64,000 nt of DNA from Acidimicrobiales bacterium (GCA_030747595.1 JASLKK010000001.1:242133-306132); one strand, 5' to 3'. Shown: positions 11,984 to 39,668, numbered from the stretch's first letter. Made by a program: numbers and translations. The notes: generated from the letters alone by a model not told the origin.

Positions 11984-13018
11984 GTGCAGGCCGTCGTCCT
12001 CGTCGGGGGACTGGGTACCCGACTTCGTCCGCTCACCGCGGACACACCCAAGCAGATGCTGCCGGTCGTGGATCGACCCATGATCGAACACGTGGTGGCC
12101 CATCTAACCGGCCACGGGGTGACCCGGGTGGTGCTGTCGATGGGCTTTCATCCCGAGGCCTTCACCGATGCGTACCCGGATGGGACCTGTGTCGGGGTGC
12201 CGCTGCACTACGCCGTCGAACCCGAGCCTCTGGACACCGCCGGAGCGGTGCGGTTCGCCGCCGTCGCCGCCGGAATCGACGAGACCTTCCTGGTTCTGAA
12301 CGGTGACGTCCTGACCGACCTCGACGTCTCGACCATGGTCGCCGACCACCGGGCGTCGGGAGCGATGGGGACCATTGCGTTGACCGAGGTCGACGATCCC
12401 TCGCGTTACGGGGTGGTCACGGTCGCACCCGACGACGGTTCGGTCGAACTGGGGGACATGACCCACGGCCGGGTGACCGGCTTCGTCGAAAAGCCGCCCC
12501 GTGGCGAGGCACCCTCGAACTGGATAAACGCCGGCACTTACGTCCTTGAACCGGCAGTCCTCGACCGCATCGAAGCTGGTCGCCGGGTATCCATCGAACG
12601 GGAGGTCTTTCCTTCGCTGGCTGCCGAAGGGAGCCTCCGTGCGGTTTGCTCGGAGGCCTACTGGCTCGACACCGGAACGCCCGAGGCCTACCTCCAGGCC
12701 CAGACCGACCTGTTGGACGGGACCCGGGCCCGAATGGAACCGCTGGCCGCCACAGCCTCCGTGGCGGTGGACGCGGTAGTGGATCGTGCCGTGGTCATGT
12801 CCGGGGCCTGCGTGGGGTCCGGGGCGACCGTGTGTGATGCTGTCCTCATGGAGGGGGCGGTTGTCGAAGCCGGAGCGGTGGTCCGCCATTCGGTGCTTGG
12901 TCCCGGTGCACGGGTCGGACGTCGGGCAGAGGTCACCGGCTGGAGCCTGATCGGCCGTGGCCAGGTGGTCGGCGACGATGCGAGGGTCGACGGTTCGCGC
13001 ATCCCCGACGAGGGCTGA
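11984..13018 (+). CDS. manC: Sugar-1-phosphate nucleotidylyltransferase, mannose-1-phosphate guanylyltransferase-like
   Basis: N-terminus MQAVVLVGGLGTRLRPLTADTPKQMLPV is the nucleotidyltransferase signature. The C-terminus is a left-handed beta-helix-like repeat. The GDP-mannose assignment rests on context (gmd, manA and PMM lie nearby). Confidence 0.8.
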   Translation: MQAVVLVGGLGTRLRPLTADTPKQMLPVVDRPMIEHVVAHLTGHGVTRVVLSMGFHPEAFTDAYPDGTCVGVPLHYAVEPEPLDTAGAVRFAAVAAGIDETFLVLNGDVLTDLDVSTMVADHRASGAMGTIALTEVDDPSRYGVVTVAPDDGSVELGDMTHGRVTGFVEKPPRGEAPSNWINAGTYVLEPAVLDRIEAGRRVSIEREVFPSLAAEGSLRAVCSEAYWLDTGTPEAYLQAQTDLLDGTRARMEPLAATASVAVDAVVDRAVVMSGACVGSGATVCDAVLMEGAVVEAGAVVRHSVLGPGARVGRRAEVTGWSLIGRGQVVGDDARVDGSRIPDEG

Positions 13019-14068: not shown

Positions 14069-14105
14069 TAGTGGACTTGTTCTTGACTGATCCATCGTCT
14101 TAGCG

Positions 14106-15920: not shown

Positions 15921-16011
15921 TGATGGGCCGGTAAGAACCAACCGGATCTCCGGTCCAACCGATTTCAGTCCCGACAGTTTGGTGCCAGAGGCGCCTAAAG
16001 GTCTGCCTCGG

Positions 16012-17702: not shown

Positions 17703-17720
17703 CTGTTCAGAACCATCAGT

Positions 17721-18761
17721 TCAGGACAGGTTCCGGAGGCGACCCTCGAGCAGGGCCATGTCCGCGTCGACCATCATCTCGACCAGCTCCACGAAGCCGA
17801 CGGTGGGCTGCCAGCCGAGTTGGTCGGCGGCCCGGGTGCCGTCACCGACCAGCAGGTCGACCTCGGCCGGCCTGTAGAACTTCTGGTCGACCACCACGTA
17901 CTTCTCCCAGTCCAGTCCGACCCGGGCGAAGGCGGCCTGGCAGAACTCCCGGACGGTGTGGGTCTCGCCGGTGCAGATCACGAAATCCCCGGGTTCGTCC
18001 TGCTGGAGCATCCGCCACATGGCGTCCACGTAGTCGCCGGCGAATCCCCAGTCGCGCTTGGCGTCCAGGTTGCCGAGGCGCAGTTCGGTGGCCTTTCCAA
18101 GGGCGATCTGGGCTGCGGCGTGGCTGATCTTGCGAGTGACGAACTCGAGGCCTCGACGGGGGCTCTCATGGTTGAAGAGCATCCCCGAGCAGGCGTGCAG
18201 CCCGTAGCTCTCCCGATAGTTCACGGTGATCCAGTGCCCGTAGACCTTGGCCACCCCGTAAGGGCTCCTGGGATGGAAGGGGGTGGACTCGTTCTGGGGG
18301 ACCTCGTGGACCTTGCCGAACATCTCGCTCGAGCTGGCCTGGTAGAAGCGGATCGTCGGGTCGACCAGTCGGATCGCGTCGAGCATCCGGGTCACACCGA
18401 GGGCCGTGGTCTCGCCGGTCAAGACCGGCTGGCCGAACGACGTCTGGACGAACGACTGGGCGGCCAGGTTGTAGACCTCGTCGGGAGCGTGCTCCCGGAC
18501 GGCCTCCACCATGGACAGCTGGTCCAGAAGGTCGCCGGAATGGAACTCGACTCGATCCATCAGGTGGGCAATGCGTTCGTAGTTGACCGTGGAACTCCGA
18601 CGGACCATGCCGGTCACCTCGTAGCCGCGGTCCAATAGGAACTCGGCCAGGTAGGAGCCGTCCTGCCCGGTGATGCCCGTGATGAGGGCGCGCTTCGTCG
18701 TAGAGTTGGTAGAGGTTCCAGCAGGGGGGCCGGTTGCTGGGTCAGCCGTGGGGTCAGCCAT
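17721..18761 (-). CDS. gmd: GDP-mannose 4,6-dehydratase
   Basis: Start set at the ATG at 18761 (MADPTADP...), because the longer ORF would overlap the upstream gene. Contains [37 protein letters not shown], and [11 protein letters not shown]. Confidence 0.92.
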
Positions 18762-18765
18762 GGGA

Positions 18766-19686
18766 TCAGTCTGCCGGGGCCGGCTCACGAAGGCGCCGTC
18801 GCCAGTCGTCGAGCAGGTCGGCCAGCGTCGCATCGAGGGTGATCTCGGGTGTCCAGCCGGTGTCGTGGTGGATGCGGGACGGATCGCCCACGAGCTCGGG
18901 GACGTCGGTCGGTCGGTGGAGGGCCGGGTCCTCCTCGAGACGCATGGACCGGTCGGACATGGCCAAGAGGCGGTGGGCAATGTCGCTGACGGCTACTGAT
19001 CGCCCGGTGCAGACGTTGTAGGCGGCGCCCGGTTCGCCGTCCACGGCCAGTCGCCGGTAGGCCCGGACCACGTCGCGGACATCGGTGAAATCCCGGCGGG
19101 CCTCCAGGTTCCCGACGGTGACCACGTCGTGGCCGGCCAACTCGTTGGCGACGACCCGGGCGGCCAGTGCCGAACAGACGAACCGGTCGCTCTGGCCCGG
19201 CCCGAGGTGGTTGAACGACCGTGCCCGGACCACGTCCTGCTGGTGGCCGAGGAAGGCCTGGAGGGCGATCAGGTCGGCGGCCGCCTTGCTGGCGCCGTAG
19301 GGGGACACCGGCCGGAGCGGGGCGTCCTCGGCCAACGGGAGGTCGTCGGGGGCGACAATGCCGTACAGGTCGGCGCTACTCACCGTGACCACACGGCGGA
19401 CGCCGTGGCGGCGGGCGGACGCCAGGAGGTTCAGCGTGCCCTCGGCGTTGGATCGGAGGGTGCCCGCCGCGTCATCCCACGACCCACCCACGTCGGCCTG
19501 GCCGGCCAGGTGGTACACCACCTCAGGTGACGCGGCGGCGATCTCACTGTGGAGGTCCTCGGTAGCCAGGAGGTCGGCGCCGCCCGCCGCCCGATCGGTG
19601 GTGGTCACGTCATCACCCTCGGCCTCCAGGTGGGCGACCAGATGGCGGCCCACGAAGCCTGCGGCACCGGTGACCAGTGCCTTCAT
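18766..19686 (-). CDS. rmd: Extended SDR, GDP-4-dehydro-6-deoxy-D-mannose reductase (Rmd)-like
   Basis: Start at the ATG at 19686 ([20 protein letters not shown]). Catalytic [12 protein letters not shown]. About 306 aa, ending 4 nt upstream of the gmd start. The Rmd versus other GDP-sugar reductase/epimerase assignment is an inference from N-terminal similarity and context. Confidence 0.65.
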
Positions 19687-19774
19687 CAGTCGGCCATCCG
19701 GGAACGGGCCTGTCGGGGAGCGTCCATCGGAGCATCGTAGGAGCAGGCGCCCGTCAGGGCGGTGAGTCGATCGG

Positions 19775-22700
19775 GTGGATCGGGGTCGCGCCAGTAGTCT
19801 CGGCGGCACCGTGGATGCCGCACCTTCCCCCGTCAGCGGTCAGCCCAGCCCCGCCGCAGGAGTTACTCCGACCCCCCGGGCGTCGTCGGCCCGGGTACTG
19901 GCCGTGATGGTCGTGGCCGACGAGGCACCGGCGCTCGAGGCGACGCTGACTGGTCTGGCCTCTCAGGACCATCCCCGGACCGACATGCTGGTTGTCGACG
20001 TCCGTCGCGACGGAGACGGTTCGGGCCCATCGCTCGTGGAACGGGTGGGGTTGATCGCACCGTCGTCTCTGGTCGTTCAGGCGCCCGGGGTGCGCGGCGG
20101 TGGCCCGGCGGTGTCGGCCGGTCTCCGGGCGTGGGCGACGGCCCACCCGACGGCGTCCGATCCGCGCTTCCTCCTCTTCGTTCCGGGACCGGTCGTTCTC
20201 GGGGATACCGCGGTGCGTCGCCTGGTGGAGCGAGCCGTGGAGGCCAATGCCGCGGTGGTCGGGCCCAAGGTCATCGGTCCGGACGGGGTGCTCGAGGAGA
20301 TGGGTTGGTGGTTTGACGCCCTCGGTTCGCCGGTGCCCGTGGTCCCCGATCCCGAATTCGACCAGGGTCAGCACGACGACTACCTCCAGCCCGAAGCGGT
20401 GGCCGGTGCAGCGTGGATGGTGCGTGCCGACCTGTTCGCCGAGCTGGGTGGCTTCGATCCCGAGGGGGTAGACGGCACGGCCCACCTGGGGTTCTGCCAA
20501 CGGGCCGGTTCTGCCGGAGCGTCGGTGCTGGTGGTCCCGTCGGCGGTCGCCCGACGGGTCGGCGCCCCCGAAGCGGTACGGCACCCTCCGGAACTCGTCC
20601 GGTCGAGGTTCCGGCTCCGACAGGCTTTGGCCGCACCTCTCGGTCGACTGGCCGTGCTGGTCCCCGTGCTGGCGGCGGCGACGGTGGTCGGGGCCCTGTA
20701 TGGCATGGCCACCGGCCGGCTACGGCATGCCCGTGGGTTGCTCGCCGCCTGGACCTGGAACCTCCGCCGCATCGGCTCGGCCCGACGACTCGCTGGGGCT
20801 GGCCCGGCCGGTCGGGGCTCGACTAGCGCGGGGTATCAGGGTCAGCGGGCCTCGTGGTGGTTGGCGTTCCGACGGGTAGCCACCGGGCGGGATCTGGCTG
20901 GAGACGACGACCGGTCCGAAGGGCTTCGGCGGCTGAATGGCGCCTTCGGGGCGGTGTTCGGCCCGGGCGGGTTGGCCATGATGATCGCCGCAGTGGTTCT
21001 GGGCTTCGGTTCTCGTTCTCTGGTGACCGACGGGATGCCGGTCGTCGGCCGCCTCCAGCGGCTACCGGAGGCACCGGGAGCCCTGGTGGACTCGTGGTGG
21101 GCCGGTTGGCGATCCACGGGGATGGGGGCCTCGGGGTCAGGGCCTGATGGTCTGGCCCTCGTCGGTCTGCTGGTCGACCGGTGGCCGGGTTCGCCGGATT
21201 CCGCGTGGACCGTCCTGATCCTCGGTGCGTTCGCCGTGGGGGCGCTTGGCGTCTGGCGCCTCGTACGCCCGGTGGGCGGCGGCCGGTCACGCGCCGTTGC
21301 CGTGCTGGTATATCTGGCGGTTCCGATTCCCTACGACGCACTTCGCGTCGGACGCCTGGCCCCTCTGGCCGCCTATGCCGTCCTGCCCTGGTTGGCTCGC
21401 CGACTGGCCGGAGCCCAGGCCATGGCTCCCTACGGCGTTCGGGGCGGCGATCCAGGCCCAGGCACCCGTCTGAGGGGCCTGTGGGCCGACGTGGTGATGA
21501 CCGGCCTGGCCCTGGCCGCAGTAGTCGCCGTGGATCCAGTCCTGTTGGTTCCTGCCTGCCTGATCGTCGTGGGGTTGGCGGCCGGCACGGTGCTGTCAGG
21601 GAGCCTCGATGGGCTGGTTCGGCTGACGATGGTGGTCGGCGGTGGGACGATGTTGGCTGCCGTGGTCCACCTGCCGGCGGCCGTAGTCGTCGCGGGACGC
21701 GACGGTGCAGGTTGGAGCGGTTGGTGGGGATCGGCATCGGGCGGCGGTTGGGAGGCGACGGGATCGATCGGCCTCTCCGGGGTTCTGGCCCTGGCGCCGG
21801 GAGCCGACGGGCCGACAGCGGTCACAGGGTTGTTCGTCCTTCCGCTGTTGGCCCTCTGTACGGCACGGGGACGGCACCTCTCGGTGGTCGTCCGAGCCTG
21901 GTTCGTGGCCGCTGCAGGGGCTGTGGTGCTGGTATCAGTGGACCAGGGTTGGCTAGGGGTCGAAGATTCGTTCCTCCGGTCGGTGGATCCGGCGGTCCTC
22001 CTCGTGCCGGTGGCCCTCGGCCTTGCCTGGGTATCGGCAGCCGGGGTGGCCGGGCTGGGTGCCGACCTGGCCCACCTGGCCGCACAGGTCCACGTGGGTC
22101 GAATGGCCCGGGTGGTTCGCAACGGGCTGCTAGGAGCAGTGGTGATCAGCCTGGCCATCGGGGCGTTGCCGGTCCTGACCGGTTCGTTCGCCGGCGACTG
22201 GGGAGTGCCGCGTGCCGATCTGACGGTGGCGCTGCCCGGGGCCGGGGCCCGTCTGGCTGATGGTGACACGGTGCCCGGTGGGGATGCCCGTGTCCTGTGG
22301 ATCGGGGATCCACTCGTGCTTCCGGCAGCGGGAATCCCGCTTTCGTGGAGCGATCGTTCGTCCGGCGTGCCGTCGGATCGATTCGACCGCCTGGCGCTTG
22401 CCGTGACCGACGGGCGACCGGACCTGTCTGACCAGTGGTCGCCGGGTGAGACGACCGCGATGGTGGCGTTGCGAGATGCCGTGGGTTCCGCGCTTGACGG
22501 TGCCACCCACCGACTGGGGGCCGATCTGGGCCGATGGGGGGTGGCCCGGGTGGTGGTCGTCGAGCGATCGGCCCCGGTCCCCGGCCCGGGCGTCGAGCGA
22601 CCGGTACCCGGCCGTCTCACCGAAGTGCTGGCCCGACAACTCGACCTGGAGCGCGTCGAGGCGGTGAACCGGTCGGTGACCGTGTATCGCAACACAGCGG

Positions 22701-23086
22701 TAGAGGCCCCGTTCTCGGTGGTTCGGGACCGGAACCGGCGGGTTGTCCCCGCTGGGGTGACCCGCCGTTCGCTGACCCGGTGGGTGGTCGAGGTTCCGGC
22801 GGACGGCGCCCTGCGTTGGATGGTGGGTCCCGACGACCGCTGGGAAGTCGGGGTCGACGGGCAGCCGGCGACGGTACTGGCGCCCGACGCGGACCATGGA
22901 GTACCGGGGCGGCCATCGGTCAGGGTGGCCACCGGGAGCATGGCCACGTTCGAGGTCGACGATGACGGGCTAGCCCGGCGTCGCCAGATCCAACTGGTAC
23001 TGGTCGCCGTGTTGGTGCTGCTGGCCAGTTGGGCTCGCACGTCCCGGGACTCGAAGCGACGACAGCAGCGGGCGGGGATCCGATGA
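19775..23086 (+). CDS. Giant glycosyltransferase family 2 protein fused to a large polytopic membrane domain and a C-terminal extracytoplasmic region
   Basis: 1103-aa ORF with a GTG start (the alternative GTG at 19811 is in frame). The GT2 core spans roughly aa 40-290 (RVLAVMVVADEAPALEATLTGLASQDHPRTDMLVVDV; GAAWMVRADLFAELGGFDPEG). After it come many hydrophobic helices rich in Ala/Leu/Val/Gly, then a final TM segment (IQLVLVAVLVLLASWA). Confidence 0.8.
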   Translation: MDRGRASSLGGTVDAAPSPVSGQPSPAAGVTPTPRASSARVLAVMVVADEAPALEATLTGLASQDHPRTDMLVVDVRRDGDGSGPSLVERVGLIAPSSLVVQAPGVRGGGPAVSAGLRAWATAHPTASDPRFLLFVPGPVVLGDTAVRRLVERAVEANAAVVGPKVIGPDGVLEEMGWWFDALGSPVPVVPDPEFDQGQHDDYLQPEAVAGAAWMVRADLFAELGGFDPEGVDGTAHLGFCQRAGSAGASVLVVPSAVARRVGAPEAVRHPPELVRSRFRLRQALAAPLGRLAVLVPVLAAATVVGALYGMATGRLRHARGLLAAWTWNLRRIGSARRLAGAGPAGRGSTSAGYQGQRASWWLAFRRVATGRDLAGDDDRSEGLRRLNGAFGAVFGPGGLAMMIAAVVLGFGSRSLVTDGMPVVGRLQRLPEAPGALVDSWWAGWRSTGMGASGSGPDGLALVGLLVDRWPGSPDSAWTVLILGAFAVGALGVWRLVRPVGGGRSRAVAVLVYLAVPIPYDALRVGRLAPLAAYAVLPWLARRLAGAQAMAPYGVRGGDPGPGTRLRGLWADVVMTGLALAAVVAVDPVLLVPACLIVVGLAAGTVLSGSLDGLVRLTMVVGGGTMLAAVVHLPAAVVVAGRDGAGWSGWWGSASGGGWEATGSIGLSGVLALAPGADGPTAVTGLFVLPLLALCTARGRHLSVVVRAWFVAAAGAVVLVSVDQGWLGVEDSFLRSVDPAVLLVPVALGLAWVSAAGVAGLGADLAHLAAQVHVGRMARVVRNGLLGAVVISLAIGALPVLTGSFAGDWGVPRADLTVALPGAGARLADGDTVPGGDARVLWIGDPLVLPAAGIPLSWSDRSSGVPSDRFDRLALAVTDGRPDLSDQWSPGETTAMVALRDAVGSALDGATHRLGADLGRWGVARVVVVERSAPVPGPGVERPVPGRLTEVLARQLDLERVEAVNRSVTVYRNTAVEAPFSVVRDRNRRVVPAGVTRRSLTRWVVEVPADGALRWMVGPDDRWEVGVDGQPATVLAPDADHGVPGRPSVRVATGSMATFEVDDDGLARRRQIQLVLVAVLVLLASWARTSRDSKRRQQRAGIR

Positions 23087-24567
23087 ACGCCACCCGGGGT
23101 CCGGCCATCCTGGTGCTGGCTGCCATGACGGCTGCGGCGGCCGCGCTCTCTTCCGGACCGGTCGAGGTGTCAGGCGCCGAGGCCCGCCCTGAGGCCCGAG
23201 CCGCCACGACCCTCGACAGTTCCTCGACGGCCCTCTGGTTCTGTACCGGGCCGACCGCTGAACTGGACGGGATCGATGAGCGGACCGTCGAGGTGGTGGG
23301 GATCTCGGCTTCACCCACCGAGGGTCGGGTGACGGTGGTGGACGAAGCCGGTCGGGCCGTGGAGCGGGCCTTCAGGATCGATCCGGGAGACCGCCTCAGG
23401 ATCTCGCCCGGCCAGTTCGTCTCCGGGGCGATGTTCGCCGGTGTCACCGTCGAGGTCAGGGGTGGTGCCGCCGTGGTAGGCCAGACGGTGGCCGGTCCGG
23501 ACGGAGCGGATCGTCGGCCATGCACGACCAGGGCTTCTGATACCTGGGTGGTGCCCTGGTCGACCACGGCCCGGCCCGGAAATCGTGCCTGGGTGCTGCT
23601 CCACAATCCGTTCCGAGCCGCAGCGGTGGCCGATCTACGGTTCGTCGGCGACATCGGTCGCCGCGAGACTTTGGACTCCCAGGGCGTCGTGGTGCCCGGC
23701 CGTTCCATTGTGGCCTACGACGTGACGGAGCGGATCGCCGATTCCGCGGTCGTTTCGGCCACCATCGACGTCCGCGTGGGTCGGGTGGTGGTTACTCGAC
23801 TCCAGGCGTCGGACGGGTCGGGCCCCCTGGCCACCCGGGGTCTGGACCTGGCTCCCGGGGTGCCGGAGCTCGCCACCCGGGCATTCATTCCCGGGGTCGG
23901 CACGGGAGCGGTGTCGACCGGAAGCCCGGGTGCCGGTACGTCGGTGGTGGTCGTCAACACGGGCGTGGAGGCCGTTGAGGCCGAGGTGGTGGTCCGGACC
24001 GGTGAAGAGGTGACCGGCCTGGAGCCGTGGCGTCTGGTGCTGAGGGCCGGCCAGCGCCACGTGGTGGACCTAGATGCCGGTCGTCTCGAGGGGGCTGACG
24101 CCTTCGGGGTGGAAGTGAGGACGCTGGACGGTCGCCCGATCGCCGCTTCGGTGGTGCAGCGGTTCGGAGGTGACGGTGTCTCAGAGGCCAGTAGTTCAGT
24201 AGAGGGCGGCCTGGCGGTACGGCCGGCGGCTGTCGTGGCGGCTCGAGGGTGGGTGGTGGATCTCAATGATCGGTACGGGGCCACCGCTGATGTCCTCGCC
24301 GTCATGAATCCAGCCAGCGAGGGAATCGCCACCATCGAGGTGAAGGTTCTGGCCGGGACAGCACCGGCTGGTGTGGCGCGTTCGGTGGAGTTGGCGCCCG
24401 GGACGCAGGTCTCGTTCGATCTGGCGGGCGGACCACCGGCGGTTCTGGCCGTGGAGTCCACGGCGCCGGTCATTGTCTCTATCCACAGCAGGACAGGTGA
24501 GGGAGCAACCGCTTCTTTCGCAGTGGCGGTCGCCGGGACCGAGGCCCGGCCCGTTCCCAGCAACTGA
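23083..24567 (+). CDS. Secreted/anchored beta-rich protein, DUF5719-like
   Basis: The ATG at 23083 overlaps the upstream stop (ATGA). N-terminal signal/anchor (AILVLAAMTAAAAALSS). The remainder is repetitive and Val/Gly/Ala-rich with beta-strand character. The DUF5719 assignment is from memory of the conserved pairing with the giant GT2. Confidence 0.6.
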   Translation: MNATRGPAILVLAAMTAAAAALSSGPVEVSGAEARPEARAATTLDSSSTALWFCTGPTAELDGIDERTVEVVGISASPTEGRVTVVDEAGRAVERAFRIDPGDRLRISPGQFVSGAMFAGVTVEVRGGAAVVGQTVAGPDGADRRPCTTRASDTWVVPWSTTARPGNRAWVLLHNPFRAAAVADLRFVGDIGRRETLDSQGVVVPGRSIVAYDVTERIADSAVVSATIDVRVGRVVVTRLQASDGSGPLATRGLDLAPGVPELATRAFIPGVGTGAVSTGSPGAGTSVVVVNTGVEAVEAEVVVRTGEEVTGLEPWRLVLRAGQRHVVDLDAGRLEGADAFGVEVRTLDGRPIAASVVQRFGGDGVSEASSSVEGGLAVRPAAVVAARGWVVDLNDRYGATADVLAVMNPASEGIATIEVKVLAGTAPAGVARSVELAPGTQVSFDLAGGPPAVLAVESTAPVIVSIHSRTGEGATASFAVAVAGTEARPVPSN

Positions 24568-27171: not shown

Positions 27172-27915
27172 GTGCGCCCGATGGAGGGCCCGACGGAAGG
27201 TGAGGTGGTCGCGTCGTCGCGTCCGTCCGTCGCCTGGGGTCTGGGCCACGTGGCGGTCGGATGGGTGGTCGGCCTGATAGCCACCGTGGCGGCCCTGGGC
27301 GTGGTCGTGGCCATCGCGGGTGACGAAACGGCCAAGGATCCCAGTCTGGCCGTGGGAGCGCTCATCCAGGGTGCCCTGTACGTGGGGTTGGTCGGGGTCC
27401 CGGCGTGGCTGGTGATGGTCCGCGGGGTCAGGTGGGCCGACTTCGGCTGGGCCGGGCCAGGCCGGGGCGGTCACTGGCGAGACGCCTGGCACGGCCTGAT
27501 CATCGGCGTGGTGGCTCAGGTGGCAGTCGTCCCGGCCATCTACCTCCCGATCCTTTTGCTGACCGACGACCTGGATATCTCGGGGCCGGCCCGTGAACTG
27601 GTCGACCGGGCCGACGGGCTCGGCATTGTCCTGCTGGTCCTGATGGTGGTGGTGCTGGCCCCCGTGGCCGAGGAACTTTTCTTCCGCGGGATGGCGCTTC
27701 GGGCGTTGGAGGCACGGATGGCCCGACGGATTGCACTGGTCGTCTCGGCTTCCTTCTTCGGACTGACCCACTTCCAACTCCTGCAGCTTCCGGCGCTGAT
27801 CATGATCGGGTTGGTGTGCGGATGGTTGGCCCAACGCGACGGGCGGCTGGGCCGGGCCGTATGGGCCCACGTGGGCTTCAACGCCACCACGATCGTGATC
27901 CTGTTGGCCGGATGA
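27172..27915 (+). CDS. CPBP family intramembrane glutamic endopeptidase (CAAX protease-like)
   Basis: Polytopic. Motif 1 APVAEELFFRG and motif 2 FGLTHF, plus a later HVGFN. Confidence 0.85.
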   Translation: MRPMEGPTEGEVVASSRPSVAWGLGHVAVGWVVGLIATVAALGVVVAIAGDETAKDPSLAVGALIQGALYVGLVGVPAWLVMVRGVRWADFGWAGPGRGGHWRDAWHGLIIGVVAQVAVVPAIYLPILLLTDDLDISGPARELVDRADGLGIVLLVLMVVVLAPVAEELFFRGMALRALEARMARRIALVVSASFFGLTHFQLLQLPALIMIGLVCGWLAQRDGRLGRAVWAHVGFNATTIVILLAG

Positions 27916-30533
27916 CCGAGATGACCGAGACGCCAATCCCGGAAGGATCGCCCGGAGGACCGGGAGAGGCCCCGGACAGCGGGCCCGACGAGACGGCCAG
28001 CCCCGTGGCGGCCCTGATCCGACGGGTACCGCTGACCCGCTGGGTGGACCTCCTCATCGTCCTCGGAGGCGTCTGGTTCGTGCTCTGGGTGGTGAATCCG
28101 GACGGCGTACTGTTCACCCGCTCTACCCCCACCGGCGGCGACCTCGGCGCCCACGTGTGGGGGCCGGCATTCCTCCGCGACGAGTTGCTGCCCCGGTTTC
28201 GCCTGACCGGATGGACACCTGACTGGTACGCCGGATTCCCCGCCTACCACTTCTACATGGTGGTTCCCATGCTGCTGGTGGTGGCCGTCGACGTGGGGTT
28301 GGCCACCCCGTTGCTGGCCGTGGTGCTGCCCGTCCTGCTGGCCGCCGGGGTGGTGGTGCACCGACACCGCCTGCCGGGCTGGCCGGTGCGGCTGGGCCTG
28401 CTGGCCGCGCTGGTGGTCCTCGTCGTGCCGGTCCACTACGGCATGGCCGTCAAGTGGGTCACCGTGGCCGGCCTGGTGGTCATGCCGGTGGCCGGATGGG
28501 CGGCCGGTCGACTGGCCGGGCTCCCGTTCCCGGGTCCCGCGCTCACGTCGGTAGCCACCCTCCCGTTCCTGTTCGACCAGTCGTTCAACATCATGGGCGG
28601 AAACCTGATGTCGACCATGGCGGGCGAATTCGCCTACGCCCTCGCCATGGCGGCCTGCCTCGTGTACCTGGGCCTCCTAGTTCGGGGCATGGAGACCGGT
28701 CGGGGCCGCGCTCCGGCAGCCGCCGTACTTGCGTTGACCGGACTGTGCCATCTGCTGGTGGCGTTCTTCGCCCTGGTGGCGTCGCTGGTTGCCTTTGCTC
28801 TGCGTCCCAGTCGACAGGCCCTGCGGTGGTTGGTGACCACCGGTCTGGTGTCCGGGCTCTGCGCGGCGTTCTGGGTTCTGCCGTTCTGGTGGCGTCGGGA
28901 CCACCTCAACGACATGGCGTGGCACAAACTCACCCGCTTCCGGTCGTACCTCTGGGACCGGGGTGACCTGGCCGCCGACTTCCTGAGCAATGATCCACCG
29001 CTCCAGCCGGCCATCGTGCTGGCCGTCGTGGGCCTGGTGCTGTCGGTGGCCTTCCGCCGACGCTTCGGATTCGTCCTGGCCGGATCGGCGGTTCTGCTCG
29101 GACTGGCCTTCGTGCACCTGCCGGAGGGCCGCCTCTACAACGGCCGGATCCTGCCCGCCTACTACCTGAGCATCTACCTGCTGGCCGCGGTCGCCCTGTC
29201 GGAGGGACTGCGCCTCGCGGGCCGACTACTCGACGGAGTCCGACGATCTGCCACCGGACGGCCGGGCCGTCTGGTGGCCGGGGGAGGGGCCGTCGCCGTG
29301 TTCCTGGCGGTGGTGATCCTGCTCGGGATGCCCCTGCGGGTCATGCCTGGTGGGTCCATGGACGGCAACACCTACCGGTGGATGGGCATGGAATCGACCG
29401 AACTGAACCTCGGTCGGCCGTGGGTCCGCTGGAACTTCGAGGGCTACGAGGCCCGGGTCGGCGACTCGTCGGGTGGTGGCTGGGAGGAACAGCGGGAGTT
29501 GGCCTCCACCATGGAGAACCTGGCCGACGAGGTGGGTTGCGGCCGTCTCATGTGGGAGTACAGCAGCGACCTGGTTCGGTACGGGACGCCCATGGCCCTG
29601 ATGCTCCTGCCTCACTGGACCGACGGTTGCATCGGTTCCATGGAAGGCCTCTACTTCGAGGCTTCGACCACCACGCCGTACCACTTTCTCGTCCAGTCGG
29701 AACTCTCGGAGGGGCCGTCGCGAGCCCAGCGTGGCCTTCCGTACCGGGGCTTTGACCTAGACGCCGGCGCGGACCACCTCCGGCAACTCGGCGTACGGTG
29801 GTACTCGGCCTTCTCGGAGCGGGCCGTGCGCGAAGCGAGGGACCACCCGGGCCTGGTCGAGAAGGCGTCCAGCGGGCCGTGGACCATCTTCGAGGTGGAG
29901 GGCGCCGAAGCCGTGGTGGCCCTCGACGTGGAGCCGGCGGTGTTCACCGACGTGGATCACGAGAGCTGGCTGGATCCGTCGGTGGAGGTCTTCCAGCAGG
30001 GTTCGACCGCTGTTCCGCGAACGGTCGGTGGCCCCGGGTCGTGGCAACGAGTGGAAGCCGGAACCGAACCGGAACGTCGGCCGCTGCCCGCTGTCGAGGT
30101 CACAAACGTCGTGAGCGGGGTGGACTCGGTGTCATTTCGCGTCGACCGGGTCGGCGTACCGGTGCTAGTCCGCACGTCCTATTTCCCCAACTGGAAGGTG
30201 GAGGGTGCCGACGGTCCGTGGCGGACCACGCCGAACCTGATGGTGGTGGTCCCGACGTCCGAAGACGTCCGTCTGACCTACGGTCGAACGCCGGTCGCTG
30301 TGGTCTCGGTCCTGTTGACCCGCGTCGGACTACTGGCCCTGGTGTCTCTGGCCCGCCGGTCGGCCGTTCCTTCTGAACCGGCAACACCGGAGAACGCATT
30401 GTTCGACGTAGCGGCCGCTGGCCCCGACGGTGACCGGCGGCTGGACCGATGGGTGGATCGCCGGGTAGCCAACGAGCCTTCGGAGGAACCGGAGAGTTCG
30501 GAGTCGGCGGCCGGGGAGCACGGCGAGTCATGA
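27912..30533 (+). CDS. Large polytopic membrane protein with a roughly 350-aa extracytoplasmic C-terminal domain; GT-C-like putative glycosyltransferase
   Basis: The ATG at 27912 overlaps the CPBP stop (ATGA). About 12 or more hydrophobic helices. An early loop reads TPTGGDLGAHVWGP...TPDWYAGFPAYHFYMV. The C-terminal soluble part contains WNFEGYE and LPHWTDGCIGSMEGLYFE. The fold assignment is an inference. Confidence 0.7.
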   Translation: MTEMTETPIPEGSPGGPGEAPDSGPDETASPVAALIRRVPLTRWVDLLIVLGGVWFVLWVVNPDGVLFTRSTPTGGDLGAHVWGPAFLRDELLPRFRLTGWTPDWYAGFPAYHFYMVVPMLLVVAVDVGLATPLLAVVLPVLLAAGVVVHRHRLPGWPVRLGLLAALVVLVVPVHYGMAVKWVTVAGLVVMPVAGWAAGRLAGLPFPGPALTSVATLPFLFDQSFNIMGGNLMSTMAGEFAYALAMAACLVYLGLLVRGMETGRGRAPAAAVLALTGLCHLLVAFFALVASLVAFALRPSRQALRWLVTTGLVSGLCAAFWVLPFWWRRDHLNDMAWHKLTRFRSYLWDRGDLAADFLSNDPPLQPAIVLAVVGLVLSVAFRRRFGFVLAGSAVLLGLAFVHLPEGRLYNGRILPAYYLSIYLLAAVALSEGLRLAGRLLDGVRRSATGRPGRLVAGGGAVAVFLAVVILLGMPLRVMPGGSMDGNTYRWMGMESTELNLGRPWVRWNFEGYEARVGDSSGGGWEEQRELASTMENLADEVGCGRLMWEYSSDLVRYGTPMALMLLPHWTDGCIGSMEGLYFEASTTTPYHFLVQSELSEGPSRAQRGLPYRGFDLDAGADHLRQLGVRWYSAFSERAVREARDHPGLVEKASSGPWTIFEVEGAEAVVALDVEPAVFTDVDHESWLDPSVEVFQQGSTAVPRTVGGPGSWQRVEAGTEPERRPLPAVEVTNVVSGVDSVSFRVDRVGVPVLVRTSYFPNWKVEGADGPWRTTPNLMVVVPTSEDVRLTYGRTPVAVVSVLLTRVGLLALVSLARRSAVPSEPATPENALFDVAAAGPDGDRRLDRWVDRRVANEPSEEPESSESAAGEHGES

Positions 30534-33127
30534 GGGAACGTCTCCGTCGGTTTGCGGTCGTCGGCCTGGTGGCAACGACGATCGACGTCGGCCTGGCCGT
30601 CCTCCTGCTGGGAGCTGGTTGGTCTCCGTGGTCGGCCGATGTCGTGGCTCTGGGTCTGGCCGCCGTGGCAGCCCGCCTGCTGCACCGGTCGGTGACGCTT
30701 CGCGACGACCCGTACGCCCGCTGGATCCGCCTCAAGCGGGTCTTCGTCACGGTCGTCGTGGTGGCCGGGCTGGTCGATCTCGCCACCCTCACGGCCGGTC
30801 GAACCCTGTTGGACGGAACTGACGCCGGTGGGTCCGAAGATTGGCGGATCGACCTCGCTGCCAAGCTGGTCGCCGTACTGGTGGCCGGCCTGGTGCGAGC
30901 GGTGGCCTACCGGGCGTTCCTGTTCCGCGTGATCCGGCGGGAACAGGACCATCCGTCGGAACGACCTCCTCCGGCCGGTGACGTGCGGGTGACCGTCGTG
31001 CTTCCCGCCTACCGGGAGTCCGACCGGATCGCCGAGACGGTCGCCCGGGTGCGAACTGAGCTAGCCGTCGCGCTCGCCGAGGCCGATGGTCAGACCGAGG
31101 TGGTGGTCAATGACATCGAGGTAGTAGTGGTCGACGACGGATCGCCGGACGACACCGCGACGGTTGCCGAGGCAGCCGGAGCAGATCGGGTGGTCCGTTT
31201 GGATCGCAACCAGGGCAAGGGCGCAGCCGTGAGGGCTGGGGTCGCCGTCGCATCGGGTCGCACCGTGGTGTTCACCGACGCCGACCTGGCATACGGGCCC
31301 GCTCAGGCCGCGGCACTGGTGGCCCGGGTCGAAGAGGGATACGACCTCGTGGTGGGTAGCCGGCGACACACCGACACCACCACTCTGGTGCGGGCCGGCC
31401 GCCTTCGCGAGGTGGGTGGCCGGTTGGTGAACCTGACCACCCACGCATTGCTGCTAGGGCAGTACCGCGACACACAGTGTGGTCTCAAGGCCTTCCGGGC
31501 CGACGTCGCCCAGCCGCTCTTCGAGGCGTCGGTGCTGGGTGGCTTCGCCTTCGACGTCGAGTTGTTCCACCTGGCCGAGCGGTGGCGCCTCACCCTGGCC
31601 GAAGTGCCCGTAGAGGTCGAGAACTCGGAGCGGTCCACCGTCCGGGCGGTCCGCGACGGCTTACGCCTGGTCGCCGACCTCGTCCGCGTCCGCCAGCGGG
31701 CCCGACGCGGCGACTACCCCGAGGCGCCGACCTTTCGACCGCCGGGCAACAAGACCCGACTTTCAGAGACCCCTATTTTCAAGGCATACGACATCCGTGG
31801 ACGGGTGCCTGAGGAGTGGGACGAGTCGGTGGCCGAAGCCATCGGCCGGGGGTTCGCCAACCTGGTCCGACGTCGGGAACCCGAGAGCACTCAGGTCGTC
31901 GTGGGCCGCGACATGCGTCCCAGCGGCGTGTCCCTGGGAGCGGCCCTCATCCAGGGGATCACTGGTGAGGGCCTCGACGTCGTCGATGTGGGCCTGGCAT
32001 CCACCGACCTCGTCTACTTCGCGTCAGGCCACCTCTCGTCGCCCGCCGTGGTGCTCACAGCCAGCCACAATCCAGCCGGCTACAACGGCATGAAGTGCTG
32101 CCTCTCGGGCGCCGCCCCGCTGGGCTACGACAACGGCCTGAACGAAGTGGAGGCCGACGTCCTGGTCGGAACTCCACGAGGTGAACCGACCGGTGGCCCG
32201 CCGGGCAGCGTCCGCACCCTGGACATGCTCGACGTCTTCGTCGAGCATGTCCGGTCGTTCGCCGACCTCTCGGCACTACGACCGCTACATCTCGTGGTCG
32301 ATACGGCTAACGGCATGGGAGGCCTGGTCGTTCCGGCGGTGTTGGACGGCCTCCCGTTCACGGTGGACCACCTCTATCCGGAACTGGACGGGACCTTCCC
32401 CAACCATCCCGCCGATCCGATCCAGCCGGAAAACCTCCGCGACCTCCAGGCCCGGGTGCTGGCCACCGGCGCCGATCTGGGACTGGCCTTCGACGGTGAC
32501 GCCGACCGGGTCTTCCTGGTCGACGAACAGGCCCGCCCGATCTCGGGGTCGACAACCACCGCACTGGTGGCCCGGGGGGTCCTACGGCGTGAACCCGGTG
32601 CGACCATCCTCCACAACCTCATCTGCTCGAAGGCCGTGCCCGAAGTGGTCGCCGAGGAGGGAGGGGTCGCCCTACGGACCCGGGTCGGCCACTCTCTCAT
32701 CAAGCAGGCCATGGCCACCGAGGGGGCGGCCTTTGCCGGCGAACACTCCGGGCACTACTACTTCCGCGACAACTTCCGGGCCGACAGCGGGATCATTGCC
32801 GTCCTTGTCGTCCTCGAGGCCCTCTCCACCCACGGCGGACCGATGAGCGACCTGGTCGCCCCCCTGGAGAGGTATGGGGCATCTGGCGAGCGCAACACCG
32901 AAGTGGATGACCCAAAGGAGGTCATCGAACGAGTGGCCGCCCACTACCGCACCGAGGCCCCCGAGGCCGACCAGGACCGCCTCGACGGGTTGACCGTCGA
33001 CTTCGGCGACTGGTGGTTCAACCTGCGACCCTCCAACACCGAACCGCTCCTACGTCTCAACGTTGAGGCGGCCAACGCCGAGGCGTGCGCGGTCCGGGTC
33101 GACGAGGTCCAAAGCCTGTTTACCTAG
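30530..33127 (+). CDS. Tri-domain fusion: GtrA-like membrane module + GT2 polyprenyl-phosphate glycosyltransferase + phosphomannomutase/phosphoglucomutase
   Basis: The ATG at 30530 overlaps the upstream stop (ATGA). aa 1-140: RRFAVVGLVATTIDVGLAVLLL plus 3 further helices. aa 150-400: VTVVLPAYRESDRIAETV, VVVVDDGSPDDT, VFTDADLAY, RDTQCGLKAF. aa 416-865: IFKAYDIRG, TASHNPAGYNGMK, AFDGDADRVFLVDE, GEHSGHYYF, RPSNTEPLLRL. There is no stop between the domains. Confidence 0.85.
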   Translation: MRERLRRFAVVGLVATTIDVGLAVLLLGAGWSPWSADVVALGLAAVAARLLHRSVTLRDDPYARWIRLKRVFVTVVVVAGLVDLATLTAGRTLLDGTDAGGSEDWRIDLAAKLVAVLVAGLVRAVAYRAFLFRVIRREQDHPSERPPPAGDVRVTVVLPAYRESDRIAETVARVRTELAVALAEADGQTEVVVNDIEVVVVDDGSPDDTATVAEAAGADRVVRLDRNQGKGAAVRAGVAVASGRTVVFTDADLAYGPAQAAALVARVEEGYDLVVGSRRHTDTTTLVRAGRLREVGGRLVNLTTHALLLGQYRDTQCGLKAFRADVAQPLFEASVLGGFAFDVELFHLAERWRLTLAEVPVEVENSERSTVRAVRDGLRLVADLVRVRQRARRGDYPEAPTFRPPGNKTRLSETPIFKAYDIRGRVPEEWDESVAEAIGRGFANLVRRREPESTQVVVGRDMRPSGVSLGAALIQGITGEGLDVVDVGLASTDLVYFASGHLSSPAVVLTASHNPAGYNGMKCCLSGAAPLGYDNGLNEVEADVLVGTPRGEPTGGPPGSVRTLDMLDVFVEHVRSFADLSALRPLHLVVDTANGMGGLVVPAVLDGLPFTVDHLYPELDGTFPNHPADPIQPENLRDLQARVLATGADLGLAFDGDADRVFLVDEQARPISGSTTTALVARGVLRREPGATILHNLICSKAVPEVVAEEGGVALRTRVGHSLIKQAMATEGAAFAGEHSGHYYFRDNFRADSGIIAVLVVLEALSTHGGPMSDLVAPLERYGASGERNTEVDDPKEVIERVAAHYRTEAPEADQDRLDGLTVDFGDWWFNLRPSNTEPLLRLNVEAANAEACAVRVDEVQSLFT

Positions 33128-33224: not shown

Positions 33225-33461
33225 ATGACGCTCGATCCGAAGCTCCTAGAGATCCTTGCCTGCCCGGAGGACAAGGGCCCGCTGCTCTGGTTCGCCGACG
33301 AGGACGCGTTGTACAACCCCCGACTGCAGCGCCGGTACGCGGTACGGGACGGCATCCCGGTGATGCTGGTCGACGAGGCCGAACAGGTCGACGACGCCGA
33401 GCACGACCGGCTCACCGCTCTGGCGGCCGCCGAGGGCATCCAGCCGACCTTCGGGGACTGA
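33225..33461 (+). CDS. Trm112 family small protein
   Basis: 78 aa. LLEILACPEDKGPL ... YAVRDGIPVMLVDEA, typical of the Trm112/DUF343 family (the variant without the four-Cys zinc site). Confidence 0.8.
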   Translation: MTLDPKLLEILACPEDKGPLLWFADEDALYNPRLQRRYAVRDGIPVMLVDEAEQVDDAEHDRLTALAAAEGIQPTFGD

Positions 33462-33527: not shown

Positions 33528-34658
33528 ATGGACCTGCTCGACGGTGTGATCCGGTCCTACGACTGGGGATCCACCACCGCGCTGGCCGACCTGCGTGGCG
33601 TCGCTCCCAGTGGCGTGCCGGAGGCCGAGTTGTGGTTCGGCGCCCACCCGTCTGGCCCCTCGACCTTCCGCGGCGACGGTCGCGACGTGACGGCGGACGA
33701 GATGCCGTTCCTGGTCAAGGTGCTGGCCGTGGAGCGGCCGCTCTCTCTCCAGGCCCATCCCGACCAACAGGCGGCCGTGGTCGGACACCGGCGAGAGGAC
33801 GAAGCCGGACTGGCGACCGAAGATCCTCAGCGGTGCTTTCCCGACGCCTGTGCCAAACCGGAGATGGTGTGTGCAATCGGGCGGTTCGAGACCCTCTGCG
33901 GGTTCCGGCCGGTCGACGAGGCGGTGGCCGCGGGGACGGCGCTGGGGCTACCGGAAGCGGTCGTCGACGCCATCCGGCGGGTCGACTGGCCAACCGTGGT
34001 GGCTGCCGTCCTGGCGTCCACGCCCGATGACCTAGCGGACCTTCTCTCGGCCGCCCACGGGATCGCAACCAGCGCGCCGTCCAGTGAGGCGCACCGCCCT
34101 GCCGCCGAGATGGTTCTGCGGCTGGCCGAACTGCATCCGGGAGACCCCGCGCTGTTGCTCGTCCCGCTGCTACGTCATCTGGTGCTAGCCGACGGTGATG
34201 CCCTGTTCGTGGCTCCCGGTGTCCTGCACGCCCACCTCTCGGGACTGGCTGTCGAGGTCATGGCCGTCTCCGACGACGTGGTCCGGGCCGGGCTAACCAG
34301 CAAGCACGTGGACCCGACCGCTCTGGCCGAAGTGCTCCGCTCCGACCGGGTCGACGTCGTGGAGTCACCGACCGGCCCGGTCCACCGGTACGCAGCCGGC
34401 CAGACGGAGGACCAGATCAGCGAGGTCGGCGCCGTTTTATGGCGGCTGGCCGGCGATGGGCTCGACGTCGACCTGTCCGACCGTCGTGGCCCCGAACTGG
34501 TGATCTGCACGCAGGGCACAGCGCTGATCGGTACGCCGGGCGACGGTCCCGATCTTGTCGTCGGGAGCGGTGAGGCAACCTGGATCGGACCGGATGACGG
34601 CCCGGCCCGGATGAGGGTGGACGGCACCGTCCATCGGGTGACCGTGGGGGAGGGTTGA
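33528..34658 (+). CDS. manA: Mannose-6-phosphate isomerase, class I
   Basis: YDWGS, ELWFGAHP, PFLVKVLAVERPLSLQAHPD, and VAPGVLHAH. Confidence 0.9.
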   Translation: MDLLDGVIRSYDWGSTTALADLRGVAPSGVPEAELWFGAHPSGPSTFRGDGRDVTADEMPFLVKVLAVERPLSLQAHPDQQAAVVGHRREDEAGLATEDPQRCFPDACAKPEMVCAIGRFETLCGFRPVDEAVAAGTALGLPEAVVDAIRRVDWPTVVAAVLASTPDDLADLLSAAHGIATSAPSSEAHRPAAEMVLRLAELHPGDPALLLVPLLRHLVLADGDALFVAPGVLHAHLSGLAVEVMAVSDDVVRAGLTSKHVDPTALAEVLRSDRVDVVESPTGPVHRYAAGQTEDQISEVGAVLWRLAGDGLDVDLSDRRGPELVICTQGTALIGTPGDGPDLVVGSGEATWIGPDDGPARMRVDGTVHRVTVGEG

Positions 34659-38762: not shown

Positions 38763-39668
38763 TTGCTCATGACCCGGGGAATCGTCAATGCCTTCCGACT
38801 TGCTTCGGTGGTCGCGCGCGTGGTCCCTCCGGCGATCTCGTTGCCCGTTGCCCGGATGGTGGGTCGTATCGCCGGCTACCTCGACAGGGACCGTCGTCGA
38901 CTCGTTGAACGCAACCTGCGTCGGGTTCGTGGGCCGGAACTGACCGGCCGCCAACTGCGGCGATCAGTGGACCTGGTGTTCGCCTCGTACGCCGACTACT
39001 ACCTCCAGAGTTTCCGGCTGCCGTCAATGAGCGCCGAGGAGATTGTGTCCGGCTTCACCGAGGAGGGCTACGAGCGGATCGCCGAGGGGCTCGAGGCCGG
39101 TAACGGCGTCATCATGGCCATGCCACACCTCGGTAGCTGGGAGTGGGCTGCCCACTGGTTGACCCTCCACCACGGCGTTCCCGTGGGGTGCGTGGTCGAG
39201 TCGCTCGAGCCGCCGGAACTCTTCGACTGGTACCGGAGCTTCCGGGCGTCCCTTGGGATGAAGGTGGTGGGCCTCGGCCCGGGTGCCGGCACCGAGACCA
39301 TGGCCATGCTCCGCGAGAACCGGGCGGTGTGCCTGCCCAGTGACCGGCATGTCGGTGGCTCGGGCGTGGCGGTCGAGTTCTTCGGCGAGGTCACGATGCT
39401 GCCCGCCGGTCCGGCCACCCTGGCGCTGCGCACCGGGGCCGTCCTGTTGCCCATTGCCATCTACGACCACCCGGGCGGCTGCCACGGCGTGGTTCGCCCA
39501 CCGGTAGCGGCCCAACGCGAAGGTCGGCTACGTGACGATGTGGCCCGGGTGACCCGGGCGCTGGCCGCCGAACTGGAGGTACTGATCGCCGCCGAGCCCG
39601 AGCAGTGGCACCTCCTGCAACCCAACTGGCCGTCAGATCAGGAGGATTCGGCATGCGAATCGGCCTGA
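38763..39668 (+). CDS. patA: LPLAT/HtrB-family acyltransferase, phosphatidylinositol mannoside acyltransferase-like
   Basis: 301-aa ORF (TTG at 38763 or ATG at 38769). Contains MPHLGSWEWA, the HX4D/E-like acyltransferase region. Position between pgsA1 and pimA supports the call. Confidence 0.75.
   Translation: MLMTRGIVNAFRLASVVARVVPPAISLPVARMVGRIAGYLDRDRRRLVERNLRRVRGPELTGRQLRRSVDLVFASYADYYLQSFRLPSMSAEEIVSGFTEEGYERIAEGLEAGNGVIMAMPHLGSWEWAAHWLTLHHGVPVGCVVESLEPPELFDWYRSFRASLGMKVVGLGPGAGTETMAMLRENRAVCLPSDRHVGGSGVAVEFFGEVTMLPAGPATLALRTGAVLLPIAIYDHPGGCHGVVRPPVAAQREGRLRDDVARVTRALAAELEVLIAAEPEQWHLLQPNWPSDQEDSACESA

Follow-up and report, generated by a model that had tools for sequence, protein, structure and literature searches.

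Why should a phosphohexomutase, an enzyme of sugar activation, be carried on the same polypeptide chain as a membrane glycosyltransferase? The question is raised by a stretch of 64,000 nucleotides from an Acidimicrobiales bacterium (GCA_030747595.1, JASLKK010000001.1:242133-306132), referred to below as the window. In it, a single open reading frame (ORF) encodes a transmembrane (TM) domain resembling GtrA, a family 2 glycosyltransferase (GT2) domain and a complete alpha-D-phosphohexomutase of the phosphomannomutase/phosphoglucomutase (PMM/PGM) class. The original prediction, made from the nucleotides alone, had recognised these three modules in one ORF and had proposed that tethering the mutase to the membrane points to substrate channelling or to a non-canonical order of reactions. 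Here it is argued that the fusion is probably one half, the part in cytoplasm and membrane, of a three-component system for extracytoplasmic glycosylation of the GtrA/GtrB/GT-C type, joined to the downstream housekeeping pmm gene by the loss of a stop codon. The key context, missed by the original prediction, is the ORF directly upstream; since this encodes a predicted GT-C glycosyltransferase, the whole unit can be read as a three-component glycosylation operon fused to a neighbouring housekeeping gene.

The reading frame itself is uninterrupted, as had been claimed. It is open for 892 codons from an ATG at 30449 (30449..33127) and for 865 codons from the ATG at 30530, and the start equivalent to 30530 (MRERLRRF) is the one used by the homologues in a 38-sequence alignment and by independent gene calls. 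Profile searches place all three modules above their Pfam thresholds, with the catalytic motifs intact. The GtrA_DPMS_TM family (PF04138 / IPR007267) is matched at amino acids (aa) 7-132 with 36.7 bits (cut-off 26.1), covering positions 1-117 of the 117 in the profile; Glycos_transf_2 is matched at aa 155-326 (E = 2.5e-24), and the models PGM_PMM I-IV at aa 416-859, all four above the cut-off. The motifs that had been quoted from the sequence lie where they were said to be: VVVVDDGSPDDT at aa 198 and FTDADL at aa 248 in the GT2 part, and TASHNPAGYNGMK (phosphoserine loop) at aa 510 and DGDADR (metal site) at aa 655 in the mutase. In the 38-sequence alignment no variation is seen at the catalytic residues of the two enzymes; this holds for VVDDGS (200-205) and DAD (250-252) of the GT2, which also contains DTQCGLKAF, and for the four mutase loops, namely TASHNP (phosphoserine), DGDADR, GEHSGH (sugar binding, aa 737) and RPSNTEP (phosphate binding, aa 833).

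The C-terminal domain is, to judge from its sequence, an enzyme of the PMM/PGM class, with that activity predicted for it. It narrowly misses the equivalog cut-off of PRK09542, the NCBIfam model for actinobacterial PMM/PGM (580.6 bits against 618), which makes it a close relative rather than a certified equivalog, matches PDB entry 5bmn with E = 1e-98, is 40% identical to the Xanthomonas PGM, and superposes in Foldseek on the Xanthomonas PGM structure 5bmp with a target TM-score of 0.93 and a root-mean-square deviation of 2.1. For the GT2, the only significant relatives of solved structure are polyprenyl-phosphate glycosyltransferases: ArnC (9hwj, 2.6e-14), GtrB (5ekp, 6e-10) and the dolichol-phosphate mannose synthase of Pyrococcus furiosus (PfDPMS; 5mlz, 7e-9). 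The top NCBIfam matches are AglJ, PpgS, ArnC and a dolichol-phosphate hexose transferase, while glucosyl-3-phosphoglycerate synthase is matched more weakly (E ~1e-5 to 1e-13); none of the NCBIfam equivalog cut-offs is reached by the GT2, the best being AglJ with 74 bits against 325. In the AlphaFold2 (AF2) model the N-terminal part forms four long helices (2-28, 33-55, 61-94 and 105-139) with a predicted local distance difference test (pLDDT) score of ~70-89. Basic residues are found at both of its ends, which is consistent with an N-in/C-in topology, and the even number of TM helices together with the basic ends would place both the GT2 and the PMM in the cytoplasm. The GT2 domain ends in an amphipathic helix (373-393), and from the model it would be associated with the membrane through this helix and the N-terminal bundle. 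The GtrA-like domain is a membrane anchor and a putative module for the translocation of the lipid-linked sugar; for most named members of the GtrA family, translocation of a polyprenyl-phosphate sugar is without proof (PMC12992685).

Between the GT2 and the mutase lies a linker which, from the end of the GT2 (…G-x-Y-P/E/D) to IFKAYDIRG, measures ~15-50 residues in the 38 homologues, is poorly conserved and is always in frame. Variable length with little conservation marks it as a genuine flexible linker, and AF2 predicts it as disordered, with pLDDT below 50 at aa 403-413. An internal start yielding a separate PMM was considered and ruled out: in agreement with the original prediction, no in-frame ATG, GTG or TTG exists between codon 359 (GTG 31604, inside the GT2 part) and codon 426 (GTG 31805), and because the latter lies downstream of the conserved IFKAYDIRG (aa 416), a complete PMM is not available from a start of its own. 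The model of the full-length product has high local confidence (pLDDT 84.6), but no fixed docking between the domains appears: the predicted TM-score (pTM) of 0.56 means that no fixed arrangement of the PMM relative to the GT2 is predicted. When the full model was searched with Foldseek, the top 50 matches were mutase structures alone and the GtrA-GT2 half gained nothing. The closest cluster representative (P0001, 872 aa) carries a seven-residue tandem duplication, KAPIFKA-KAPIFKA, at the linker/PMM boundary (window aa 408-416), an indication that the junction tolerates insertions and deletions.

The second line of evidence comes from the gene directly upstream. Its longest ORF, from GTG 27816, would encode 905 aa, and independent gene calls give 873 aa. 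The AF2 model built from 36 homologues (pLDDT 78.8, pTM 0.82) shows a multi-TM N-terminal half, an extracytoplasmic mixed alpha/beta domain (~aa 510-825), a last TM helix and a disordered cytoplasmic tail. The first 12 Foldseek matches in the PDB are all GT-C enzymes (AftD, AftA, ArnT, STT3, DPY19, PglB, AftB), with probabilities of 0.94-1.0 and E values from 7e-7 to 4.5e-2, seven of them at or below 1e-3; unrelated transporters rank after these, with E > 0.1. The model PF10131 (PTPS_related), which belongs to the Pfam GT-C clan CL0111 (PMC7801869), is matched by 14 of the 36 homologues (best E = 5.6e-16) and not by the window protein itself. The first loop following TM1 (aa 73-93) contains two aspartates, D109 (TPxGGDxGAHVW) and D136 (TPDWY), kept by at least 90% of the 36 homologues, which is what a GT-C enzyme would be expected to show. 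Relatives fused to GtrA-GT2, GT2, GT2-PMM or PMM share 40-47% identity with the protein in their N-terminal part, and the terminal TM helix of the protein, by returning the C-terminus to the cytoplasm, would explain how such fusions are accommodated. For the upstream ORF a GT-C fold is thus predicted, with the putative role of extracytoplasmic partner.

The genes of this unit are tightly packed, in an operon of ~68% G+C (Table 1). ATGA overlaps are found at both ends of the GT-C gene: its start shares bases with the stop of an Rce1-like gene (27912-27915), and the ATG of the fusion at 30530 shares bases with its TGA, so that the Rce1-like, GT-C and fusion genes are three consecutive genes joined by ATGA. 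The polyprenyl-phosphate GT2, the GtrA-like module and the GT-C are therefore co-encoded, adjacent and with overlapping start and stop codons, and their order, or fusions between them, is kept in relatives. The Rce1-like gene occupies the same position in loci L081 and L083; the position of the Trm112p-like ORF is kept in L081, L083 and L084-L087; and manA is syntenic in L001, L003, L008, L011, L013, L014 and L083. The ahcY gene is also found downstream of the fusion in the window. A common backbone, consisting of a large GT2, DUF5719, FtsH (on the minus strand), Rce1-like, GT-C, then PMM, Trm112p, manA or a gene of the phosphoglucose isomerase/phosphomannose isomerase (PGI/PMI) type, and ahcY, is shared by the window and two longer loci. 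On this evidence the PMM is the resident pmm of a neighbourhood that is conserved in the chromosome, and the GT-C/GT2 pair is located directly upstream of it. The manC-like gene pointed out by the original prediction is confirmed as encoding an NTP_transferase plus hexapeptide protein; it lies 17.5 kb upstream of the fusion, is unfused, and is a candidate for the conversion of hexose-1-phosphate into nucleoside diphosphate (NDP)-hexose.

Table 1. Features of the fusion locus and its neighbours, in coordinates of the window
Feature	Position	Strand	Details
ManC-like sugar-1-phosphate nucleotidyltransferase	11984..13018	+	Pfam NTP_transferase, E = 5.6e-52, plus hexapeptide/LbH
GDP-mannose dehydratase-family genes	17721..19809	-	two genes
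Rce1-like (CPBP) membrane protease gene	27172..27915	+	Pfam PF02517, E = 6.7e-19
Predicted GT-C-fold membrane glycosyltransferase	27912..30533	+	873 aa from ATG 27912
GtrA-GT2-PMM fusion ORF	30530..33127	+	865 aa, stop at 33125-33127
GtrA-like four-helix TM domain	30530..30949	+	fusion aa 1-140; Pfam PF04138
GT2 (GT-A fold) polyprenyl-phosphate glycosyltransferase domain	30977..31714	+	fusion aa ~150-395
Flexible GT2-PMM linker	31715..31774	+	aa 396-415; relatives place a stop and the PMM start codon here
Complete alpha-D-phosphohexomutase (PMM/PGM) domain	31775..33127	+	fusion aa 416-865 plus stop
Trm112p-like ORF	33225..33461	+	78 aa; Pfam PF03966, E = 2.9e-12; between fusion and manA
Type I phosphomannose isomerase manA	33528..34658	+	Pfam PMI_typeI_cat, E = 2.2e-23

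How the fusion is distributed bears directly on its origin. The identical 865-aa product was found, with the same neighbours, on at least ten contigs from independent samples and assemblers, among them Logan SRR25584942, Logan SRR31477842, JGI 3300037802 and ENA ERZ4200890. A search of 5.8 billion protein clusters returned full-length GtrA-GT2-PMM proteins of 845-885 aa in ~40 clusters, at 53-96% identity, and some of the 90%-identity clusters hold 103, 204 and 275 members. The named sources of the fusion clusters are metagenome-assembled genomes of Acidimicrobiales, Acidimicrobiia or Microthrixaceae. Among the best 150 matches in 1.84 billion 50%-identity representatives, P0021, P0121 and P0057 alone span both the GT2 and the PMM. 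The architecture is narrow in distribution.

When the four modules of the window, that is, the GT-C protein (MEM), GtrA, GT2 and PMM, were mapped onto the 120 best relatives, the order MEM > (GtrA) > GT2 > PMM was found to be constant, and every combination of adjacent modules was found as a single polypeptide. Besides the GtrA-GT2-PMM proteins of the ~40 clusters, there are GT2-PMM, MEM-GT2-PMM (1,500 aa), MEM-PMM (~1,250 aa), MEM-GtrA-GT2 (1,100-1,430 aa) and MEM-GT2 proteins, as well as stand-alone GtrA-GT2 and stand-alone PMM. A scan of the GTDB species representatives for the locus (L001-L020) yielded one genome with the full fusion plus MEM and manA (Acidimicrobiales BH16, L001) and ~17 Acidimicrobiia genomes in which these genes keep their order but are separate ORFs (L002-L020). 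Both outcomes envisaged by the original prediction for related genomes therefore occur, the fusion being conserved in ~40 clusters and split elsewhere, in some cases by one stop. In five of the split loci (L002, L003, L012, L013, L016) the GT2 and the PMM are in one frame with a single stop between them; the stop is followed by …GRAPMAVLDSIFKAYDIRG…, the PMM begins at an ATG 2-20 codons past it, and the protein continues as M-x-x-LD-x-IFKAYD. With a single in-frame stop at the junction, one stop-codon substitution is enough to interconvert the split and the fused states.

The history of the fusion was traced in a bootstrapped neighbour-joining (NJ) tree of the concatenated GT2 and PMM (32 taxa, 672 columns), a distance method that gives the number of events only approximately. 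The three-way fusions form two clades, A and B, each recovered in 200/200 replicates, while the monophyly of A+B was recovered in 0/200. Clade B is placed among split loci (L002, L003 and L005), and additional GT2-PMM lineages are scattered across the tree. Since the two clades are not sisters, fusion and/or fission must have been recurrent; a single origin of the three-way fusion is ruled out by the 0/200 value, within the limits of a distance tree. In a further locus (L081, 8001-13080) the GT-C is fused directly to the PMM (1265 aa), and a SIS/bact-PGI_C gene of the bifunctional PGI/PMI type replaces manA.

From these elements a pathway can be proposed. ManA would produce mannose-6-phosphate and the C-terminal PMM/PGM domain mannose-1-phosphate, which a separate soluble nucleotidyltransferase, possibly the ManC-like protein, would convert into GDP-mannose. 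The GT2 domain, which the four-helix bundle at the N-terminus would keep on the inner side of the membrane, would then move the sugar onto polyprenyl phosphate, giving polyprenyl-phosphate-mannose; the lipid-linked sugar would cross the membrane, possibly through the GtrA-like domain, and the GT-C would pass it to an acceptor of the envelope. The logic of the original prediction, according to which a nucleotidyltransferase must act between the PMM product and the GT2, is correct. Mannose is favoured over glucose by the conserved manA or PGI-PMI neighbour, and a precedent is offered by the ManB > ManC > Ppm1 > GT-C route of actinomycetes (PMC5982138). As for the fusion, the stop codon would have been lost between translationally coupled neighbours, and the product would have been kept, not as a channelling device, but because being co-expressed and close to the membrane does no harm or brings a slight advantage. 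In a packed, translationally coupled operon of 68% G+C, stop-codon loss is sufficient to explain the fusion.

The proposed system resembles several known ones and differs from each of them. In three-component glycosylation systems (PMC11127046, PMC8035078), such as GtrA/GtrB/Gtr* of Shigella phages, CsbB/GtcA/YfhO of Bacillus and Listeria, and PpgS (Rv3631)/Rv3632/Rv3779 of Mycobacterium tuberculosis, a polyprenyl-phosphate GT2 synthase, a small GtrA-family TM module and a GT-C are likewise encoded together; the window GT2 is significantly similar to GtrB and PpgS, and the window GT-C has a large extracytoplasmic domain, as in those systems. In the window, however, a single chain contains both GtrA and GT2 and carries a phosphohexomutase in addition, the GT-C belongs to a PF10131-like family, and the genes lie inside a chromosomal pmm-manA backbone instead of a serotype-conversion or teichoic-acid locus. 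The statement of the original prediction that GtrA and GT2 are normally separate proteins needs correction, because the joined form is already known (PMC5526996, PMC12992685) and the Pfam family itself is named after the GtrA and DPMS TM domain. In the type-III DPMS of P. furiosus (5mlz), whose GT2 is detectably similar to that of the window, a GtrA-like four-helix TM domain proposed to flip the product (PMC5526996, PMC12992685) is covalently joined to the GT2, as in the window, but at the C-terminal end rather than the N-terminal one, and there is no mutase domain.

The actinomycete pathway from ManB (SCO3028/Rv3257c) through ManC and Ppm1 to GT-C enzymes (Pmt, PimE, MptA-C) comprises the same enzymatic steps as the window and shares with it the pmm-manA-ahcY neighbourhood (PMC5982138). 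In characterised actinomycetes, by contrast, ManB works on its own as a soluble enzyme and the gene for Ppm1 lies elsewhere, whereas in the window a single protein combines steps 1 and 3, and the GT-C comes from another family. Enzymes of a single sugar-activation pathway are fused in one polypeptide, as here, in AlgA/WbpW (phosphomannose isomerase-GDP-mannose pyrophosphorylase, PMI-GMP), GlmU and HldE. These join consecutive soluble steps (steps 1 and 3 in PMI-GMP), unlike the window fusion, in which a soluble mutase is attached to an integral-membrane lipid glycosyltransferase. Ppm1 of M. tuberculosis is itself fused to an Lnt-like domain. In short, the covalent GtrA-GT2 pairing and the three-component logic are already known, while the addition of a phosphohexomutase was not found described: literature searches on GtrA/GT2-PMM fusions and on Acidimicrobiia envelope glycans found no description of the GtrA-GT2-PMM architecture, in line with the original prediction, which knew of no characterisation of it.

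Several observations weigh against the proposed reading. The window GT-C protein matches no Pfam model, nor any NCBIfam model or PDB entry by sequence, and its target TM-scores in Foldseek are moderate (0.34-0.51). Some GT-C-PMM relatives, such as L081, have no ppm-like GT2 within their 20-kb locus, so that the link between GT-C and PMM cannot run through an adjacent GT2 there. The persistence of the fusion over ~45% divergence and in two clades could reflect positive selection for tethering, which a mostly neutral explanation leaves unexplained. Finally, the sugar used by the GT2 is not readable from its sequence, its nearest solved relatives using three different sugars, and the PMM class is bifunctional, which makes glucose possible.

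This last point leads to the best surviving alternative, in which the mutase acts as a phosphoglucomutase and the GT2 makes polyprenyl-phosphate-glucose from UDP-glucose, like GtrB and CsbB, for a GT-C glucosyltransferase. In addition to the bifunctional class of the enzyme, whose best structural match is the Xanthomonas PGM, it can be argued that GtrB, a glucose enzyme, is among the closest solved relatives of the GT2 and that the actinomycete ManB SCO3028 has both activities (PMC5982138). The genomic context speaks for mannose instead: downstream, manA or a PGI/PMI gene has been conserved as the neighbour, ManC-like and GDP-mannose dehydratase-family genes are present in the locus, and polyprenyl-phosphate-mannose is the standard donor of GT-C enzymes in Actinomycetota (PMC5982138). 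A glucose system is thus unlikely, if still a real candidate.

The proposal of channelling concerns the reason for the fusion. According to it, a membrane-tethered PMM would feed hexose-1-phosphate locally and more efficiently than free diffusion, with a recruited nucleotidyltransferase in between, and the fusion would be positively selected. There are indeed at least five or six separate lineages in which the PMM has become linked to a partner anchored in the membrane (GtrA-GT2-PMM twice, GT-C-GT2-PMM, GT-C-PMM), and the fusion is kept down to 53% identity. The nucleotidyltransferase of the middle step, however, is in no fusion seen and is distant from the fusion in the window; the linker, besides being variable, is predicted to be disordered, and packing between domains is not confident; many sister lineages work with split genes; and fusion of all adjacent pairs is what stop-codon loss alone would yield in a packed, overlapping, high-GC operon. 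No positive evidence was found for channelling as advanced by the original prediction, and we consider it improbable. The recurrent attachment of the PMM to a membrane partner, including the direct GT-C-PMM fusion, leaves a little room for a modest selective benefit. In its adaptive form, for which the chances are smaller still, the idea would be that the tethered PMM, with ManC bound non-covalently, makes up a membrane metabolon that dedicates mannose-1-phosphate and GDP-mannose to polyprenyl-phosphate-mannose for an Acidimicrobiia-wide mannosylation by PF10131-like GT-C enzymes; if this were true, the repeated, independent fusions of PMM to GT2 or GT-C would be convergent solutions.

Non-canonical chemistry, in which the GT-A-fold domain would use sugar-1-phosphate directly or possess nucleotidyltransferase activity of its own, bypassing ManC, would account for the absence from the fusion of the one step between the PMM product and the GT2 donor. 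Yet the GT2 keeps the nucleotide-sugar motifs DDGS and DAD, its significant similarities are solely to polyprenyl-phosphate transferases that use NDP-sugars, and a ManC-like gene is present in the window; this part of the original prediction finds no support and is very improbable. Weak matches to PF12804 (MobA-like NTP transferase) in 3 of 36 homologues (best E = 5.6e-4) could be cited for a hidden nucleotidyltransferase and were set aside as expected from the shared GT-A-like fold. An assembly or sequencing artefact, or a pseudogene, in which a missed stop or indel at ~31650-31780 joined two genes, would fit the stop that close relatives carry exactly at the GT2-PMM junction, and is virtually eliminated by the exact-sequence look-up in independent assemblies, the hundreds of members in the ~40 clusters, the in-frame linker of varying length and the conservation of all catalytic motifs.

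Other regions of the window deserve a brief mention. At 14001-16000 the G+C content drops to 0.61, compared with ~0.68-0.70 elsewhere, and the dip overlaps a 604-aa ORF (14106-15920) with no family match; the sugar-nucleotide gene cluster may thus have received an insertion of foreign origin here. On the minus strand at 16012-19809, between the manC-like gene and the glycosylation operon, there are genes of F420 biosynthesis (cofE/F420 ligase and cofD) with the two GDP-mannose-dehydratase-family genes; this F420/manC layout echoes the whiB2-fbiAB-manC region of other Actinomycetota. A 1103-aa ORF (19775-23086, +), upstream of the DUF5719 gene (23029-24567), has no Pfam match at E = 0.1 and is 31-35% identical to a GT2 protein of ~1050 aa that L083 encodes at the equivalent syntenic position. 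At 38763-40726 (+), a Lip_A_acyltrans lipid A-type acyltransferase precedes a glycosyltransferase of family GT4; together they are reminiscent of the phosphatidylinositol mannoside (PIM) acyltransferase/PimA pair of actinobacteria and would suggest mannosylated phosphoinositide lipids in this organism.

The reading of the locus as a three-component operon fused to pmm has consequences beyond the window. Public databases annotate the fusion proteins as either "glycosyltransferase" or "phosphomannomutase", and with such single-activity names pathway reconstructions can miss one of the two activities. The natural single chain of GtrA and GT2, in the reverse order to that of archaeal type-III DPMS, may be a useful construct for the question of whether GtrA proteins flip lipid-linked sugars. 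Literature searches on PF10131 found no function described for the PF10131-like GT-C family; in this respect, the fusion pattern is a natural "Rosetta stone", connecting the family with a synthase of polyprenyl-phosphate sugars and with the supply of mannose, and giving it a testable function. It also provides a first handle on envelope glycosylation in the Acidimicrobiia, a class of aquatic and soil Actinomycetota that is abundant and for the most part has not been cultured.

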